Shown here: positions 18,565-47,476 of the stretch, in pieces
How the letters are laid out: every line of letters starts with the position of its first letter
Numbering within the stretch: position 1 is the stretch's first letter
NCBI GenBank assembly: GCA_965217115.1
Contig: OZ244239.1
Coordinates: 1,984,001 to 2,048,000 of the forward strand
DNA length: 64,000 bases
Direction of reading: 5' to 3'
Origin: Bdellovibrionales bacterium
GTDB taxonomy: Bacteria; Bdellovibrionota; Bdellovibrionia; Bdellovibrionales; CAYMLA01
Notes under the pieces: generated by a model
Databases searched by the model: none
What the model saw: only the letters and a program-made list of their open reading frames with translations
What the model was told of the DNA's origin: nothing
Position numbers and translations under genes: made by a program

Positions 18565-18573
18565 AAAACCTCC

Positions 18574-18655
18574 TAAAGTTCTTATATTTTAAGCATCTTA
18601 GAAATTCAACTTCTTAAAGTTCTTATATTTTAAGCATCTTAGAAGTTCAACTTCT
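18574..18655. repeat. 41-bp tandem duplication (2 copies, 1 mismatch)
   Basis: taaagttcttatattttaagcatcttagaa(a/g)ttcaacttct x2, immediately upstream of the RBS of 18157..18564. Confidence 0.95.
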
Positions 18656-18805
18656 CAAAATATTTAACGGGCTCAAAATGAACCCTTAGGCTTTATGATC
18701 TGTGAACGTAAGTTTTATTTATTATATTGAGATCGCTTAGATAAAAAGAAATCTAATGAAAAATGGTTTCTCACCAACCACTGTTCATTATTTCCTTGTT
18801 TTGAT

Positions 18806-18949
18806 GAGTCTAATGCCGTTTTCTTTCTAGAATATCTCCCAAAAGAATCCAGTTCTTTTCGGCGAGTTTGGCTTGGCGACTTCTATTGCATTTCTCTGCA
18901 ATGGAAGGTGACAAACGGATGTTTGAGCAAGAAAAGGGCTAGAGTCTTT
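18806..18949. repeat. Palindromic element, variant 3: left 55-bp arm, conserved core, truncated right arm
   Basis: Core halves gcgagtttggcttgg (18862-18876) and caaacggatgtttgagc (18912-18928) around apical stem cttctattgca-tttctc-tgcaatggaag; 18806-18860 is an inverted repeat of 20728-20782 (50/55). Confidence 0.85.
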
Positions 18950-18974
18950 GATCTGTACCCCAAAAAGGGGACAC

Positions 18975-40543: not shown

Positions 40544-41665
40544 ATGTGCATCTTGAAAGGGCCTTCCCACGGAGTTCTTCTAATTCAAACAGCGTTTATT
40601 GGTGATTTGTTATTAACAATCCCCCTCGCCCGTCGCTTAAAAGAATTACTGCCTGAGCATCCTCTAACTCTTTTATGTCGTAAGGGCTTAGGAGATATTT
40701 TACTGGCAACTAAAGTGATTGATCATGCTGTGGAAGTGGATAAGAGAGATCGCAATGCTTGGAAACAGATAGGGGAAAATCTTAAACAAAAAAAATATAA
40801 ATGGGTTGTGTGTCCCCATCGTTCTTTCACATCGGCTCGTCTGGTCAGCTCCTTAAAGGCAGACAAGAAGATTGGCTATTCTCTTTGGTGGAATTTTACG
40901 GTTTTTGACCATCGAGTGCAACGTCCTTTGATTGAGCCGGAGGTGATACGTCAGTTATATCTTATAAGTGAATTAGACAAAGTAACAGGTAAGAGGCTGG
41001 AGTCTTACAGTGGTCACCAGAAGAGTGCTTTATCTCAAGTACCCACCTGGGCTTCCATGGAATTAAGTGAGACTGTGTTTCTCCCGTCTAAGACAGAGAT
41101 ATTAAAGAAAAAATACCTATCGAGATGGAGTGATGGAGAGAAAAAAATCATCTCAGTGGCGCCGGGAAGTGTGTGGCCAACTAAGAGATGGAGGCTTGAT
41201 GGATATAAGCAATTGATTGCTGAGTTGCTGGATCGTGATTTTTCCGTGATTTTACTCGGATCGCCTGATGAGAGAGGGATTTGCGATGAAATAGAAGAGT
41301 CACAACAGCAGGGTAGGCGGTCTCAAGTTGTGAATTTAAGTGGTGAGACTTCCCTACTAGAGTCCTTGTATTTGATGAAACTGACTTCTGTGCTCGTCGC
41401 CAATGACAGTGGTGCTATGCACATGGCCTCGGTTGCGGGTGTCCCGTGTGTGTCTATTTTTGGTCCGACGACATTGGGATTAGGTTACCGACCATGGCAG
41501 AATAATGCTGCCGTAGTGGAGAATAAGAACCTATCTTGTCGACCTTGCGGTAAACATGGTCACAGAAAATGCCCTATTGGGACCCATGAGTGTATGACTT
41601 CATTGAAGGTGCCTGAGGTCTTGTCCCAACTGGGGCTTCTGGCAAATGACCCGTTTCTTAAATGA
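40544..41665 (+). CDS. GT9 LPS heptosyltransferase (WaaF-like)
   Basis: IQTAFIGDLLLTIP, APGSVWPTKRW, ANDSGAMHMA, IFGPT, CRPCGKHG...CP...HECM. Confidence 0.92.
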   Translation: MCILKGPSHGVLLIQTAFIGDLLLTIPLARRLKELLPEHPLTLLCRKGLGDILLATKVIDHAVEVDKRDRNAWKQIGENLKQKKYKWVVCPHRSFTSARLVSSLKADKKIGYSLWWNFTVFDHRVQRPLIEPEVIRQLYLISELDKVTGKRLESYSGHQKSALSQVPTWASMELSETVFLPSKTEILKKKYLSRWSDGEKKIISVAPGSVWPTKRWRLDGYKQLIAELLDRDFSVILLGSPDERGICDEIEESQQQGRRSQVVNLSGETSLLESLYLMKLTSVLVANDSGAMHMASVAGVPCVSIFGPTTLGLGYRPWQNNAAVVENKNLSCRPCGKHGHRKCPIGTHECMTSLKVPEVLSQLGLLANDPFLK

Positions 41666-42090
41666 GTCTTTAAATTATTTAGCTCAGACATTCGTTTGGC
41701 ATGCACCGCTCGCTTTAAAGCGAGCAAGTGCTGGCAAAGAACACCAACTCCCCCCACTTCGCTGTTCCCAGTCGAAGGCTTCAAAGGAGAGTTTCTGAGC
41801 TAAATAATGAGCTAAATAATGAAGCCTCATTTAAGAAACGGCTCATTTGCCAAACATTCCCTTGGAAGTCCCATGGGCTGTGAACAACGGGGATGGCTTC
41901 TGGCAAAGAACACTTTATACTCGCCCTGCTTCGCTGTTCCCAGTCAGTTGAAGGCTTCAAAGGAGAGTTTCTTAAATGAGTCTTTGTTATTTAGCGAGTT
42001 CGGCTTGGTGCACTGCTCGCTTTGCGAGCGGTGCTGCCAAACGAATGTCTGAGATAAATAATGAAGCCTCATTTAAGAAACGGGTCATTT
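41633..42090. repeat. Cluster of palindromic elements (variant 2), partly scrambled
   Basis: Inverted repeat 41641-41666/41826-41851; perfect palindrome gctcgctttaaagcgagc at 41708-41725; complete inverted variant-2 unit about 41960-42090; gagctaaataat x2. Confidence 0.92.
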
Positions 42091-42213
42091 AAAAAAAGGA
42101 TTTAACGTTGAAGACTCTAAACTCAAGGACAAAAGTCTAGGTTTACTGAAAACAACGTTTAACTTTAAACTTCATAAGTACTTAAGACCATAATCTACCA
42201 AGGAAGTTTTTTC

Positions 42214-42993
42214 GTGAAAAAGGAGTGTGTAATGAGAGTCTTGTTATTTTTCTGTTTTTTATTCATTTTTGAAGTTTCCTTTGCTGAAGAATACGCGGAG
42301 GGAAAAGTTCAATTAGCAAAAGTTGGTACAAAAGATGAAGCATTTCTCATCGGCGGCAAATATGTAAGTTCGTGTTCTAAGGGGGATTCTAAAACCCGAA
42401 AAACCCTATTGAATGCTATGTCTAATAATGAAAATGTTAATGTTAGTTTTATAGGAGGAGCTTCGAAGAGTTCTGAATGTATAACAAAGGTTAGATTTGT
42501 AACTTCAAAGTGTTTCGATGATTTGAAAGAAATGTCGTCTGAGTTTCGGAGTGATTCGGACAAGGGGTACGGAGATTCTAAAGGTCTTTTGAATAAGTTT
42601 TCTACTTTTGACTATCAATTTGATGAGAATACCCAGAGACATGTCCCATCGATAGTACAGCAAGGAGGAGCAAAGGAAGGCATTACAGTTATAACTCCCT
42701 CTGGTACAATGAAGGTTTCTGGTAGAAGCTGCAATCTCGTATCTAAGAAAACAAGTTTTAAATTTATTGCAGAAGCACTTAAGTCTGGATATGAGGAAAT
42801 TAAGCTTAGAGACAGAATTAGAAGTCTAGCTGGAAGGAGGTATAAGAAGAATGGTGATCTTGATAGATATAAGAAATTACTCAAAACATGCTCTAAGAAT
42901 ATACATCCAGACATTGAAGCCTCTGCTAAATCAATTTTAAATAAAATTAATGGCTCTACTACTGTCAATCGAACGAAAAAGGTGATTAACTAG
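42214..42993 (+). CDS. Secreted hypothetical protein flanked by direct repeats (probable start 42232)
   Basis: AGGAG RBS, signal peptide MRVLLFFCFLFIFEVSFA|EE, several Cys. Confidence 0.75.
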   Translation: MKKECVMRVLLFFCFLFIFEVSFAEEYAEGKVQLAKVGTKDEAFLIGGKYVSSCSKGDSKTRKTLLNAMSNNENVNVSFIGGASKSSECITKVRFVTSKCFDDLKEMSSEFRSDSDKGYGDSKGLLNKFSTFDYQFDENTQRHVPSIVQQGGAKEGITVITPSGTMKVSGRSCNLVSKKTSFKFIAEALKSGYEEIKLRDRIRSLAGRRYKKNGDLDRYKKLLKTCSKNIHPDIEASAKSILNKINGSTTVNRTKKVIN

Positions 42994-43047
42994 ATTTTGT
43001 GCCACTAGGTTCTGAGACGAATTAAGAATCAAAAAGTTCAGCCTTTC

Positions 43048-43086
43048 AAAATGGCTCCCGTAAAAAGAAGCCATTTTTATTTTTTT
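43048..43086 (+). terminator. Intrinsic terminator of 42214..42993
   Basis: AAAATGGCT...AGCCATTTT followed by a T-rich tract. Confidence 0.7.
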
Positions 43087-43190
43087 AGGAAAGCCCTCTA
43101 TTTAAAGTGGTCTTTTGTGACAATGTTATCTATTTCCAGAGAAAGACTAAAACTTGTTTCAAGTAAGTTTTGACTCTATGACCCGTTGTT

Positions 43191-43934
43191 GGGCTTCTGG
43201 CAAATGACTCGTCTTCAACGTTGTCTCCACTCTTTAGCTCAGACATTCGTTTGGCAGCACCGCTCGCAAAGCGAGCAGTGCACCAATCCGAACTCGCTAA
43301 AGAGTAAATCCAACTTTGAAGACTCTCCTTTGGAAGTCCCATGGGCTGTGAACAACGGGGTTGGGCTTCTGGCAAATGACTCGTCTTTAAAGTTGTCTCC
43401 ACTCTTTAGCTCAGACATTCGTTTGGCAGCACCGCTCGCAAAGCGAGCAGTGCACCAATCCGAACTCGCTAAAGAGTAAATCCAACTTTAAAGACTCTCC
43501 CTTGGAAGTCCCATAGGCTGTGAACAACGGGGATGGGCTTCTGGCAAATGACGTCTTTAAAGTTGTCTTCACTCTTTAAAGTTTGCACCCTCGCTTCGAG
43601 CTCTTTAGCTCAGTCATGGGCTTCGTTTGGCAGAACACTTTATACTCCCCCCTTCCCCCCGCCGCTCGCAAAGCGAGAGTTACCAATCCGAACTCGCTAA
43701 AGAGTAAATCCAACTTTGAAGACTCTCCCTTGGAAGTCCCATAGGCAGTGAACAACGGGGATGGGCTTCTGGCAAATGACCCGTCTTTAAAGTTGTCTTC
43801 ACTCTTTAGCTCAAACATTCGTTTGGCAGCACCGCTCGCTTTGCGAGCAATGCACCAATCCGAACTCGCTAAAGAGTAAATCCAACTTTAAAGACTCTCC
43901 CTTGGAAGTCCCATGGGCTGTGAACAACGGGGTT
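43191..43934. repeat. Tandem array of four 172-bp rod-hairpin units (variant 1)
   Basis: Units start at 43191, 43363, 43535 (228 bp, with insertions) and 43763; each is a nested IR gggcttc/gaagtcc > gtctttaaagttg/caactttaaagac > actctttagc/gctaaagagt > gctcgc-NNN-gcgagc. Confidence 0.95.
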
Positions 43935-44140
43935 GGGGTTTTGGCAAAGAACACTTTATACTCCCCCCTTCCCCCCGCTTCGCTGTTCCCAGTCAGTTGA
44001 AGGCTTCAAAGGAGAGTTTCTTAAATGAGTCTTTGTTATTTAGCGAGTTCGGCTTGGTGCGCTGCTCGCTTTGCGAGCGGTGCTGCCAAACGCATGTTTG
44101 AGCTAAATAATGAAGCCTCATTTAAGGAACGGGTCATTTA
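43935..44140. repeat. Terminal inverted palindromic unit (variant 2); part of a ~250-bp direct repeat with 41858-42109
   Basis: gtttcttaaatgag/ctcatttaaggaac and ttatttagc/gctaaataa arms around the reverse-oriented core. Confidence 0.92.
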
Positions 44141-45574
44141 AAAAAAGTTTTTAACATTAATATCGTATTTTTTTATTTTACGGAGCAAGGTGTTCTTAGG
44201 AATATTTGCGTGGGCCACCGTTTTATTGATTTTTCCCTTATTGGCTTTGAGGGCTTTTAGAATAAAATCTTTTTCAGATTGCTCTTTGAATTTATCGAAA
44301 TCAAGTTCACCAAATTCATGGGATGGAGGTGTTTTTATTGAGGATGTGGTGTGCATTGAACTGTTGCCGGAGGGAGTAGGGATCGTCGACATTTTGACGT
44401 TATCGGGTAGAGAAGCCAATGAGATTGTAGATGAATTTTCAAGGATAAATGCCCGTTCAATGACATTCTCTAATTCACGAATATTACCAGGCCAGCGATA
44501 GGATTTGAGTATTTCTAAACTAGCTGTTTCGATTTCTTGAATGTTTTTAGTTTGTTGTTTATTGAATTTTTTTATAAAATGTCGAACAAGCCTTGGGATG
44601 TCATTAACTCTATCTCTTAGAGGGGGTATGAAGATGGGCATAACGTTAAGCCGATAAAAGAGGTCTTCTCGAAAGGCATCATCTTCGATCATTTTTTCTA
44701 AGTTACGATTTGTTGCGGCGATAATTCTTGAATTGGTTTTAACCTCTCTTGTACTACCGATAGGAGTGAATCTTTTTTCTTGAAGAACTCTGAGAAGTTT
44801 TACCTGCATATCGGGCTTAAGTTCACCAACTTCATCAAGAAATAGAGTTCCGTTATTAGCTTGTTGAAAACGACCTATTTTTCTATCTGATGCTCCAGTG
44901 AAGGAACCTTTTTCGTGGCCAAAGAGTTCACTTTCCATGAGCTGTTCAGGAATTGCACCGCAATTGATTGCGACAAACTCGCCTTTCTTACGTGGGGAGT
45001 TGTAATGTATGGCACGGGCAACGAGTTCTTTCCCCGTGCCATTCTCTCCACGGACGAGAACGGAGGTGTCGACTTTACAAAGTTTATAAATAAGGTCAAA
45101 AATTTCGCGCATTTTTTCAGAGCTGCCGACAAAATCGCTATCAATGTCATCGTCAAAAATAGGATTGGAGATAGCAATTTCTGAAACAATCTGCCTAGCT
45201 TGAAGGGATTTTTTGACGATTTCAGTGAGTTTGTTGGGTTGAACTGGCTTTTCTAGATAATCATAGGCACCTTCTCTAATAGCGGCGACAGCATCGTTGA
45301 GATTACTGTGGGCCGTCATAAGTACAACGAAGGTCTTTGGCTGGATTTTTTTGATAGCTTCAAGAGCTTCAAGTCCAGTCATATTCGGCATCCGAACATC
45401 CATAAGGACAAGACCTGGTTGGTGTTGCTTGACTTGCATAAGGGCTTCTTGACCATCTTGGGCTTCTATGATGTTGAAATTAAAATTTTCCATGGACTCA
45501 AGAACGGAAATGACGGTTCTACGCAATTCACTTTCATCATCAACGATGAGAACTTTTAAATTTTCATTTTCCAT
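44138..45574 (-). CDS. Sigma-54-dependent response regulator (NtrC family)
   Basis: REC (VLIVDDE, MDVRMP), GENGTGKE, HEKGSFTGA, LFLDEVGE, FREDLFYRL, WPGNIREL, Fis HTH. Confidence 0.95.
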   Translation of the reverse strand: MENENLKVLIVDDESELRRTVISVLESMENFNFNIIEAQDGQEALMQVKQHQPGLVLMDVRMPNMTGLEALEAIKKIQPKTFVVLMTAHSNLNDAVAAIREGAYDYLEKPVQPNKLTEIVKKSLQARQIVSEIAISNPIFDDDIDSDFVGSSEKMREIFDLIYKLCKVDTSVLVRGENGTGKELVARAIHYNSPRKKGEFVAINCGAIPEQLMESELFGHEKGSFTGASDRKIGRFQQANNGTLFLDEVGELKPDMQVKLLRVLQEKRFTPIGSTREVKTNSRIIAATNRNLEKMIEDDAFREDLFYRLNVMPIFIPPLRDRVNDIPRLVRHFIKKFNKQQTKNIQEIETASLEILKSYRWPGNIRELENVIERAFILENSSTISLASLPDNVKMSTIPTPSGNSSMHTTSSIKTPPSHEFGELDFDKFKEQSEKDFILKALKANKGKINKTVAHANIPKNTLLRKIKKYDINVKNFF

Positions 45575-45586
45575 TATTCACCTCAA

Positions 45587-47476
45587 TTAGAGTATTTCAT
45601 CGTCTTCTACATTGCTCGGCACTTCAATATCTATATCACTTTCAGCGGGTAACCAAAAGCCTATTTTAGTTCCTTTATTATGTGTGCTTTTCAGTGAGAC
45701 TTGGCCTCCATGGAGCTCAACAAAGTATTTCACGAGATAGAGACCCAAGCCAGAGCCCTTTGTTTTTAGGTCTTGTTCTTTGCCTCGAACAAATTTATTC
45801 CAAATATTTTTTTGCTCTTCTTGAGTGATTCCAGTTCCGGTATCGGCGACTTCGACAACGATTTTACCTTTGATTTCTTTGGAACTGATGGTAATACTCC
45901 CGCCTTTTGGAGTGTATTTTATAGAATTTTCGATGAGATTAATGATGACTTCTTGAATGAGCGTCACGTCAAATTCAATGGAGAACATGGGCTCTAATTC
46001 AACTGTGAGATTGAGATATTTTTCTTTGGCGAGGGGAGAGAGCTTTTCTATGGCTGCTTCTATGGTTTCATTGATTTCAGCAATTTGTAGGTTGATTTTG
46101 AAATCTTTGGATTCAACTTTGATGACTTTTAGAATAGACTCAATGTAACGATGCAGCTCTTCTGAGTAATTTCGTATGGACTTAAGATCTTGAGAAAAAT
46201 CATATTCATTGTTTTCTGTGATCAATCTGTCTGTCACAGCTTGGATTTTGGCGATAGGAGTTTTTAGGTCGTGACTGATGAGGCTGACAAAATTACTTTT
46301 GAGTTCCTCTACCTTTCTTAAATAAAGTTGTTCTCGTTTGAGGCGCCAGTTTTTTCTCTCAATAATAGATGCCTGAAGTCCCATAAATATCATCCAAGTA
46401 AAAGAGAGTTGTATGAGAGGAGACATAATTGGAACCCAAAAATAATAGGCATCAAAGAGCCAAATGGAGAGTCCTAAGCAACAGATAAAGAGTGCAGTGA
46501 TAAAAACAATTGTGGATTGGCTAGGGTAGCGTCTCATTATGATGAGAGAAACGATGAGTAGAAAGAAGAGGTAGAGAATGTACCATTCATAATCTAAATG
46601 CTCGATCCAACGTCTATGGAGAATGTTATCTGTGATATGGGCGATAATTTCAGCTCGATTCATAAGACCTAGAGGGGTTAAAAATTGATGCCCAGGAGCT
46701 GTTCCAGAACCAATAATCACAAGTTTATTCTTAAAAAAATCGGGGGAAAGTTTTTTTAGAAGAACTTGGGATAGACTGACTTCGGAGAAGGAGTTAGTCG
46801 CTCCACGAAAATTGATCAATCTACTTGTTGGGAAAACGTATTCGATGGAGGGTCGTGGGTCTATTTTCTCAGATATGCGGGCGGCTATGTGAGGTATGCC
46901 AATAAGGGGAGAAGAGAAATGCCTAAGAATGCCATCGTCATCTGCCTGTAAATCCCCAATGCCGATATTGTCTCCGTATTCGTTGGAAAAACGAGGAGGG
47001 AGAGTTTGAGCCCGTCGATTTAAGTAGGTGTTCCATATAACTGTGGGATGAGTGAATATTTTCTCTTGCTCTTGTGAGAGGGAGGTCTTTGGGATATTAT
47101 CTCCAAAAAAGAAGGTGACAGCAATGGCCGTTGGTTTTTGCTCTAGGAGAAGGTTGAGAATGTTCACCCAAGTTTTTTCATTCCAATAGAGATTATCTGG
47201 AAGATGATTGTCAGAGAACTGTAGATAATTATTCTTTTGGAGGAATTTTTTACGGTCCTCTGGAGTTATTTTAATAATAACAATATCAGGAACAAAGCCA
47301 TTCTGGCCGCGTAAACTCAGGCGTGTGTCAAAAGACTTGAGTTCATCAAAAGTAAGAGCAACAAGTCCTACGGTCCAGCAGAGGAAGACCCTTAACCATA
47401 TGTTTCGACGACGCCAAATAGGGAGCGCTAGAAACCAAAATCGCTTGAGGAGTCGGTATTTCCATTTTGACCACAT
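45587..47476 (-). CDS. CHASE2-domain sensor histidine kinase
   Basis: DIVIIKI, DDDGILR, FFKNKLVIIG, TPLG...EIIA (CHASE2), 3 TM helices, SHDLKTP, NSIKY, GSGLGL. Confidence 0.9.
   Translation of the reverse strand: MWSKWKYRLLKRFWFLALPIWRRRNIWLRVFLCWTVGLVALTFDELKSFDTRLSLRGQNGFVPDIVIIKITPEDRKKFLQKNNYLQFSDNHLPDNLYWNEKTWVNILNLLLEQKPTAIAVTFFFGDNIPKTSLSQEQEKIFTHPTVIWNTYLNRRAQTLPPRFSNEYGDNIGIGDLQADDDGILRHFSSPLIGIPHIAARISEKIDPRPSIEYVFPTSRLINFRGATNSFSEVSLSQVLLKKLSPDFFKNKLVIIGSGTAPGHQFLTPLGLMNRAEIIAHITDNILHRRWIEHLDYEWYILYLFFLLIVSLIIMRRYPSQSTIVFITALFICCLGLSIWLFDAYYFWVPIMSPLIQLSFTWMIFMGLQASIIERKNWRLKREQLYLRKVEELKSNFVSLISHDLKTPIAKIQAVTDRLITENNEYDFSQDLKSIRNYSEELHRYIESILKVIKVESKDFKINLQIAEINETIEAAIEKLSPLAKEKYLNLTVELEPMFSIEFDVTLIQEVIINLIENSIKYTPKGGSITISSKEIKGKIVVEVADTGTGITQEEQKNIWNKFVRGKEQDLKTKGSGLGLYLVKYFVELHGGQVSLKSTHNKGTKIGFWLPAESDIDIEVPSNVEDDEIL

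Follow-up and report, generated by a model that had tools for sequence, protein, structure and literature searches.

A tandem hairpin array in a Bdellovibrionales genome as a probable local amplification of an old MITE/REP-like DNA element

The 64,000-nt stretch of DNA analysed here (the window; positions 1,984,001 to 2,048,000 of contig OZ244239.1 from a Bdellovibrionales bacterium) carries at 43191-43934 a tandem array of long imperfect hairpins. Our results suggest that the array is probably a local amplification of an old, non-autonomous DNA hairpin element, similar to miniature inverted-repeat transposable elements (MITEs) and repetitive extragenic palindromes (REPs), and not an array of RNA genes. 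The element is an imperfect hairpin of ~150 nt with a conserved lopsided centre of ~60 nt, fast-evolving complementary arms, conserved ends and a tail of ~20 nt. A first-pass annotation, made from the sequence alone, had described the array; it is not a locus of its own but one place of a dispersed family with 71 copies in this genome.

The array consists of four head-to-tail units, all on the plus strand. Unit 1 (43191-43362; 150-nt hairpin plus 22-nt tail, covariance-model score 128.7 bits), unit 2 (43363-43534; 133.3 bits) and unit 4 (43763-43934; 133 bits) are each 172 nt long and 95-97% identical, so the uniform 172-nt array described in the first-pass annotation holds for these three. 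It does not hold for unit 3 (43535-43762; only 31.6 bits), a degenerate 228-nt mosaic with insertions of ~29, 5 and 27 nt. One of these insertions is a C-rich 31-mer (43632-43662) that is repeated at 43948-43978, where it is fused to a truncated fifth-unit start (43935-43953; the whole feature spans 43935-43978 on the plus strand). Tandem Repeats Finder (TRF) reports only 43188-43578, with a period of 172, 2.3 copies and 95% matches. The units abut without spacers, which distinguishes the array from a CRISPR locus, as had been pointed out. Directly upstream, a plus-strand 9-mer (43182-43190) that is the reverse complement of part of the tail closes unit 1, again as described before.

Each unit is a rod of ~150 nt followed by a tail of ~22 nt. 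Folded as plus-strand RNA, unit 2 pairs positions 1-149 into one interrupted rod and leaves a 23-nt tail (-65.9 kcal/mol, z -6.5; 0 of 200 shuffles equally stable), in agreement with the predicted rod and short tail; folded as DNA, it gives -37.7 (z -6.8). The sixth stem pair is C-G, T-A or T-G depending on the unit, as reported, and unit 1 also has one uncompensated C.T mismatch. The reported arm variants between the array units and the inverted copy at 43998-44146 are likewise present. The compensatory change within the array is real but is a single event, and the real pairing evidence is the family-wide covariation. Two further features mark this locus: the apical loop reads TTT in unit 4 and AAA in units 1-3, which represents a flipped loop, and a 5x5 internal loop is specific to the array, most family members having 1-2 mismatches at that position.

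A BLAST-type search gave 72 matches to the unit in the 2.17-Mb single-contig genome, and an iterated nhmmer search resolved 71 non-overlapping copies of a ~70-nt core, distributed over 40 intergenic places. No ORF family is common to the copies. The element is 148-152 nt long in 28 non-redundant copies, and the left end lies 150-155 nt from the tail. The element begins with TTGAT..GGGCAAA, followed by an arm of ~30 nt and then the core, in which a lopsided internal loop, with CAGACAT facing AACTC, leads through inner stems to a GCTCGC/GCGAGC apical stem. The complementary arm, the right end CTTTGAAATC and the tail complete the layout. The tail is GGGAACARCGG-like, often with G-rich tracts on its 3' side. 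Since 51 of the 63 genomic occurrences of the tail motif fall within 400 nt downstream of a core, the sequence formerly called a 22-nt linker is a conserved part of the element. In 60 copies, the tail lies on one side of the core in 47, on the other side in 4, on both in 1 and on neither in 8.

To the extent that the structure had been proposed to be kept beyond chance, the family bears this out. Alignment A1 comprises 28 copies no more than 90% alike, and RNAalifold predicts 39 pairs from it, 30 of them with double changes; standard pairs occupy 96.3% of the 1077 cells. Double-change cells number 218, compared with 52.7 +/- 5.9 in shuffles (0 of 500 as high), and sliding the partners by 1-3 columns leaves 34-43. 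Double changes occur in every one of the 27 arm pairs; of the 12 core pairs, 9 never vary.

The pairing is kept on both strands alike. The first-pass annotation had described strand-polar G-U pairs working only on the plus strand; when both strands were folded as RNA, every unit was more stable on the minus strand. The 172-nt units reach about -80 kcal/mol on the minus strand and about -65 on the plus strand (6-7 versus 2-5 G-U pairs), unit 3 reaches -74.7 versus -65.6 kcal/mol (11 versus 7 G-U pairs), and the whole array -351 versus -296. With DNA parameters the strands differ by only 2-5 kcal/mol. The basal stem, said to depend on plus-only wobbles, has seven Watson-Crick pairs available on both strands, and only three or four extra wobbles are plus-specific. 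A functional RNA is expected to tolerate G-U pairs on its own strand. The arms of the 28 copies contain G-U 8 times and A-C 10 times, and 33 distinct copies from other genomes contain 1140 Watson-Crick, 20 G-U, 20 A-C and 39 other combinations in 1219 cells. Orientation is also random with respect to transcription and replication: of 20 tandem gene regions, 11 have copies that would be transcribed against the core orientation, 6 have copies that would be transcribed along it and 3 have both kinds, and by cumulative GC skew the core strand is leading at 8 loci and lagging at 5 (p 0.58). Taken with this random orientation, the G-U/A-C symmetry favours DNA as the level at which the pairing is kept. 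Such symmetric pairing could result from selection on a hairpin or cruciform, or from arm-to-arm correction without selection.

These observations bear directly on the idea that the locus is an array of structured non-coding RNAs (ncRNAs), transcribed and processed to species of ~150-170 nt, which we regard as very unlikely. The strong folding of either strand (z -6.5 and -8.9) is what such RNAs would show. In addition, 51 of 61 genomic copies are more stable on the strand opposite to the core orientation, these copies being mutually non-independent, and one core pair is G-U in 10 of 28 copies. However, G-U equals A-C family-wide, the orientation is random relative to genes, and a broken unit 3 sits among intact units. 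The suggested comparison with Rfam (release 15) matched no known structured RNA family in 41000-46000 on either strand at E<=1. Promoter-like matches in 41500-44400 number 9, against 4.3 +/- 2.3 in shuffles, but all are weak (each 9 of 12 positions), and the same scan placed none inside the array units or just upstream of them. Of the two alternatives put forward in the first-pass annotation, the processed ncRNA array is therefore unsupported, whereas a recombination-prone substrate acting at the DNA level fits the data.

The gene context of the 40 loci was derived with a purpose-made, crude ORF caller. Fifteen loci lie in convergent regions, 20 in tandem regions, 4 in divergent regions and 1 inside a doubtful ORF. 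Convergent regions are enriched (15 of 39 loci versus 314 of 1970 in the background, p 6e-4). The family is thus a dispersed intergenic repeat located preferentially behind genes. Copies bracket accessory ORFs and segmental duplications. The genes beside the copies are mostly unrelated to one another, so that duplication of gene segments does not account for the spread.

Median identity is 95.3% between copies separated by less than 20 kb and 79% (maximum 93%) between copies separated by at least 50 kb, and therefore dispersal is old and amplification is local. Further tandem arrays of the family reported by TRF have periods of 130, 147, 169, 178, 187, 215, 224, 240, 273 and 297. The varied periods indicate that the arrays consist of the element plus a variable flank, which fits local duplication and not precise end-to-end insertion. 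Within the window, a 189-nt direct repeat (41921-42109, plus strand, versus 43970-44158; 95% identical) brackets both the array and an ORF at 42214-42993. Local recombination of copies includes tandem duplication, centre inversion and the formation of mosaics.

We then propose a model for the origin of the array. A non-coding element of ~172 bp would have been amplified head-to-tail into four units and the start of a truncated fifth, with inverted copies at 41949-42097 and 43998-44146 flanking the neighbouring ORF. The process that is now active, and that produced the array, would be homologous or slipped-strand recombination between neighbouring copies. Recombination of this kind would account for the hairpin-plus-tail units, the truncated fifth unit, the mosaic third unit and the flipped loop, as well as for the 189-nt direct repeat around the ORF and the inverted copies. 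The family in this genome would be old and no longer transposing.

To analyze the distribution of the element, covariance model R1 was searched against related genomes; 20 candidates were scored per genome, so that copy numbers are lower bounds. R1 matches 18 of 151 genomes of the order, including this one, in 8 of 13 families, including that of the window, and matches usually span the full 149 positions. In a phylum-level sample, 4 of 23 genomes of the same order were matched at E<=1e-4, compared with 0 of 127 genomes from other orders. The family is therefore restricted to one order of Bdellovibrio-type bacteria. Families within this order share the conserved centre, whereas their arms are unalignable. 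The repeat is apparently undescribed: full-text searches on Bdellovibrio repeats, REPINs (paired REP sequences) and MITEs and on Bdellovibrionota MITEs gave no account of it.

Copies are present or absent at orthologous sites within genera. Two sites are filled in genome G121, but its congener G125 gives no model match at the orthologous intergenic regions. In G021, from another genus, an element follows a stop codon and precedes the gene's own intrinsic terminator, with a tRNA gene downstream; G126, G010 and G086 lack the element at this site, and G090 has a different 150-nt insert.

One possible alternative is that the hairpin has been exapted by the host at gene ends, as DNA or RNA, to serve as a site bound by a host protein, as a 3'-UTR (untranslated region) stabiliser or terminator helper, or as a seam for recombination of accessory genes. 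Host selection would then hold the centre, in accordance with its conservation across families whose arms are unalignable. The placement of copies behind genes, their bracketing of accessory ORFs and segmental duplications, and the G021 element within a 3' UTR before the native terminator are also as expected. On the other hand, presence is patchy (18 of 151 genomes, varying within genera), both orientations occur, the hairpin has no T-run terminator (0 terminator-like sites in 41500-44400), and no partner protein was identified. We consider host exaptation unlikely.

Evidence on how the DNA hairpin element moves comes from G007, a genome of another family of the order. A young subfamily there has 8 copies on different contigs, ~95% or more alike, in which a 150-nt hairpin lies between 28-bp terminal inverted repeats. 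The 9-nt flanks match at 9, 8, 8, 9, 8, 4, 8 and 7 of 9 positions in the eight copies, and at 9 of 9 around a 33-bp ends-only remnant. Thus 8 of 9 elements reach at least 7 of 9, compared with 0-6 in shifted flank controls. A fixed 9-bp duplication is the mark of a staggered target cut, as made by DDE-type transposases. On this basis, the family would have spread as a non-autonomous mobile element moved in trans by a staggered-cutting enzyme. About half of the young copies have their conserved centre flipped with respect to the asymmetric sequences that separate the outer from the middle stems, and other G007 subfamilies have outer stems of quite different sequence. The enzyme would probably recognise the folded centre, not the end sequences. 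A DNA-level, recombination-prone substrate fits this flip-flop core, and likewise the flipped loop of unit 4, the mosaics and the local duplications. The window itself has only the 9-nt inverted tail at 43182-43190, which, because of the 28-bp repeats in G007, may be read as the remnant of a left terminal repeat closing unit 1.

Palindromes of ~33 bp that consist only of ends with young-subfamily termini occur in G007, for example at L128 2997-3029, C29:397-429 and C70:24637-24669, and a perfect 9-bp direct repeat surrounds one of them. They represent either deletion derivatives or a mini-transposon of their own. Two candidates in G007 were rejected: an IS1380-like transposase on contig C46 lacks matching ends, and a weak pair of end motifs on contig C78 falls inside ordinary ORFs.

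Several observations weigh against a MITE/REP-like DNA element. The terminal 14-mer is present 78 times in G007 (control 13) and in many cases lacks the hairpin, so that the hairpin may be a passenger of another small transposon, and the 9-bp duplications may belong to a hairpin-less carrier. An automated search for target duplications was negative for 23 copies of this genome and for 39 further copies from relatives. Family searches found no Y1, TnpB, IS110 or DDE_Tnp_1 gene in this genome, no transposase adjoins any copy examined, and no autonomous relative was found, neither a long element between matching ends nor a multi-copy insertion sequence (IS) longer than 1 kb. An ordinary MITE shows the opposite of the pattern seen here, in which the centre is conserved and the ends vary. 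Finally, the hairpin may act at the RNA level, and the G021 element should be transcribed because its position, after the stop codon and before the native terminator, places it in a 3' UTR.

The search for a mover covered several enzyme families. Y1_Tnp had 0 matches in this 71-copy, 99.4% complete genome (the control matched in 6 of 14 genomes), as had the TnpB zinc-ribbon, IS110 and DDE_Tnp_1; Y2_Tnp also had 0 matches, but its control was silent too, and this result is hence uninformative. The genome has one rve match, three tyrosine recombinases (at 605, 743 and 1679 kb, all far from the clusters) and one reverse transcriptase (RT), which belongs to a type VI retron. Genome self-BLAST showed no multi-copy IS longer than 1 kb. 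Across the order, Y1_Tnp is found in 13 of 18 hairpin-positive and 104 of 133 hairpin-negative genomes, and DDE_Tnp_1 in 4 of 18 and 41 of 133, neither showing an association. G089 and G142 have many hairpin copies and no Y1 match. No ORF family recurs beside copies in relatives, and no transposase is found at the G007 ends.

Other candidates were excluded. The single rve gene is a 200-aa IS3 remnant. This truncated IS3-type OrfB (HTH_21 + rve; C1:1559-1568 kb, L100) is located among four of eight paralogs of a ~176-aa ORF family without a Pfam assignment, two further members of which lie between hairpin elements at 428-430 kb. The type VI retron at ~1868 kb has no hairpin copy nearby. It occupies C1:1868.3-1869.6 kb (L099 2867-4100, minus strand) and encodes a 315-aa RT (PADLOC RT_VI, E 1e-71) preceded upstream by a 104-aa HTH_VI protein; its msr/msd was not identified, with no match in Rfam. 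A mimic of an Xer/dif site was rejected as well, the core being unlike the B. bacteriovorus dif site listed in PMC2731167.

A REP/REPIN system, or one of bacterial interspersed mosaic elements (BIMEs), maintained by a REP-associated tyrosine transposase (RAYT, a Y1 HUH enzyme) would account for an extragenic palindromic repeat in tandem clusters, and 117 of 151 genomes of the order have Y1_Tnp-like genes. It would not account for the 0 Y1_Tnp matches in this nearly complete genome with 71 copies, for the lack of an order-wide association, with G089 and G142 carrying many copies and no Y1, or for head-to-tail arrays of units of ~150 nt instead of 20-40 nt. We judge it highly improbable. The Y1_Tnp-like ORFs of the order are weak-scoring (33-46 bits), ~180-260 aa long and multi-copy in many genomes, and they resemble RAYT-type genes associated with a different repeat family. 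The first-pass annotation had named a match to a known REP/BIME family as a result that would speak against its interpretation; the array does belong to dispersed palindromic repeats in kind, but apparently not to a described family.

It is tempting to speculate that the invariant lopsided centre is the recognition site of an undescribed structure-specific DNA enzyme, one that moves, inverts and amplifies folded DNA and does not belong to the Y1/RAYT, IS200/605-TnpB, IS110 or IS4/IS5-type DDE enzymes. We think this improbable. Were it true, it would represent a new kind of transposition or recombination system, in which the middle and not the ends defines the element.

The surroundings of the array contain further pieces of the hairpin element. 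A degenerate composite copy (41633-41855, plus strand; model match 41634-41855, 37.3 bits) starts with a left element half, followed by the C-rich module and rearranged arm pieces. The GT9 glycosyltransferase gene (40544-41665, heptosyltransferase-like) runs into a partial element, from which its final 11 codons and its stop codon derive. Next come a lone unit 3' end with tail (41858-41896, plus strand; 95-97% identical to the array unit ends) and a full-length inverted hairpin copy (41949-42097, minus strand; R1 150 bits, E 2.8e-32). The bracketed ORF (42214-42993, plus strand) encodes 259 aa, begins with a signal-peptide-like segment and matches no Pfam family. It has two weak paralogs, at C1:1909295-1910110 and C1:1910164-1910883, likewise bracketed by elements. 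A second full-length inverted copy (43998-44146, minus strand; 146.6 bits) closes the cluster and abuts the 3' end of a sigma-54 activator gene (44138-45574, minus strand). This activator, a 478-aa response regulator, lies downstream of a 629-aa CHASE2 histidine kinase, and the pair spans 44138-47476 of the window on the minus strand. Elsewhere in the window, a weak match to the hairpin model at 18818-18966 (minus strand; 30 bits, E 1.6e-4) may be a diverged family member, and a 41-bp tandem repeat (2.3 copies, 18567-18659) adjoins it.

Logan contigs from four runs of one sample break in the repeat, leave part of unit 3 without cover and are uninformative on copy number. A single contig (run X3) crosses the junction between units 1 and 2 with zero mismatches, and its source sample may equal that of the assembly. 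The hairpin family breaks short-read assemblies; it also yields false ORFs in annotation, for example of 97 and 90 aa across the array.

A sister palindromic family of ~13 near-identical hairpins of ~150 nt shares part of the core motif. Its sites on C1, outside the window, are at ~65.7, 67.4, 195.7, 199.9, 292.7, 370.7, 505.7, 725.4, 772.7, 812.9, 1070.9, 1673.7 and 1972.4 kb. It sits within repeated blocks of 350-520 bp, for example at 141.3, 505.3, 594.5, 675.1, 731.0, 844.9 and 1707.0 kb. Weak 81-nt nhmmer matches that might have indicated a tRNA origin of the core correspond to this sister family, and such an origin was rejected.

The usual explanation of small palindromic repeats rests on their ends, in the case of MITEs, or on a linked RAYT gene, in the case of REPs. 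The present family is distinctive in that the middle is kept while the arms drift yet stay paired, the middle flips relative to the ends, and the occurrence is limited to one order. Its 71 copies persist in a genome almost without transposases, at the seams of accessory-gene blocks and local duplications. A protein that moves or binds the centre, if found, could reveal a new way of handling folded DNA and could explain accessory-gene shuffling in small predatory-type genomes.

REPs, REPINs and BIMEs are based on 20-40-nt palindromes with a conserved 5' tetranucleotide, arranged in alternating clusters with linker motifs and served by a RAYT transposase. The present family resembles them as extragenic palindromes behind genes, in clusters and tandem arrays, as a mosaic of a hairpin and accessory motifs, and in stems that stay paired while the sequence drifts. 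It differs from REPs and REPINs in its ~150-nt hairpin and in conserving a lopsided centre in place of the 5' tetranucleotide. Unlike those of BIMEs, the array units do not alternate but are all head-to-tail on the plus strand, although accessory motifs do occur. No RAYT is present in this genome, and the order shows no association with Y1_Tnp.

IS200/IS605 elements and their non-autonomous derivatives make no target duplication, need a Y1 transposase and have irregular hairpin ends. The likeness is that folded DNA with irregular hairpins, not an end sequence, would be read by the enzyme; the difference is that this genome has no Y1 or TnpB gene and that the copies show no bias in replication orientation. 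Integron attC sites are imperfect palindromes of 60-140 nt, with structure conserved over sequence, conserved ends and a variable centre. Similarly, the hairpins are imperfect palindromes conserved in structure, and they bracket small accessory genes in same-orientation runs. In contrast to attC sites, however, it is the centre that is conserved and the arms that vary, the copies occupy 40 separate loci, and no integron-type integrase lies near any cluster, the three tyrosine recombinases all being elsewhere.

The MITE-like families ERIC/IRU, Correia (CREE/NEMIS) and YPAL are non-coding imperfect palindromes of 100-200 bp, intergenic and often just behind stop codons. Compared by properties, our family matches them as non-coding intergenic palindromes in tens to hundreds of copies. 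Being small (~150-172 nt), non-coding and present in 71 copies, it is MITE-like here, and in one relative, G007, terminal inverted repeats were seen together with target duplications that may belong to a carrier element. It departs from MITEs in that duplications are seen only in one young subfamily and no parent IS with the same ends was found, and in its architecture: the centre is conserved across families, the ends vary, and the centre flips relative to the ends.

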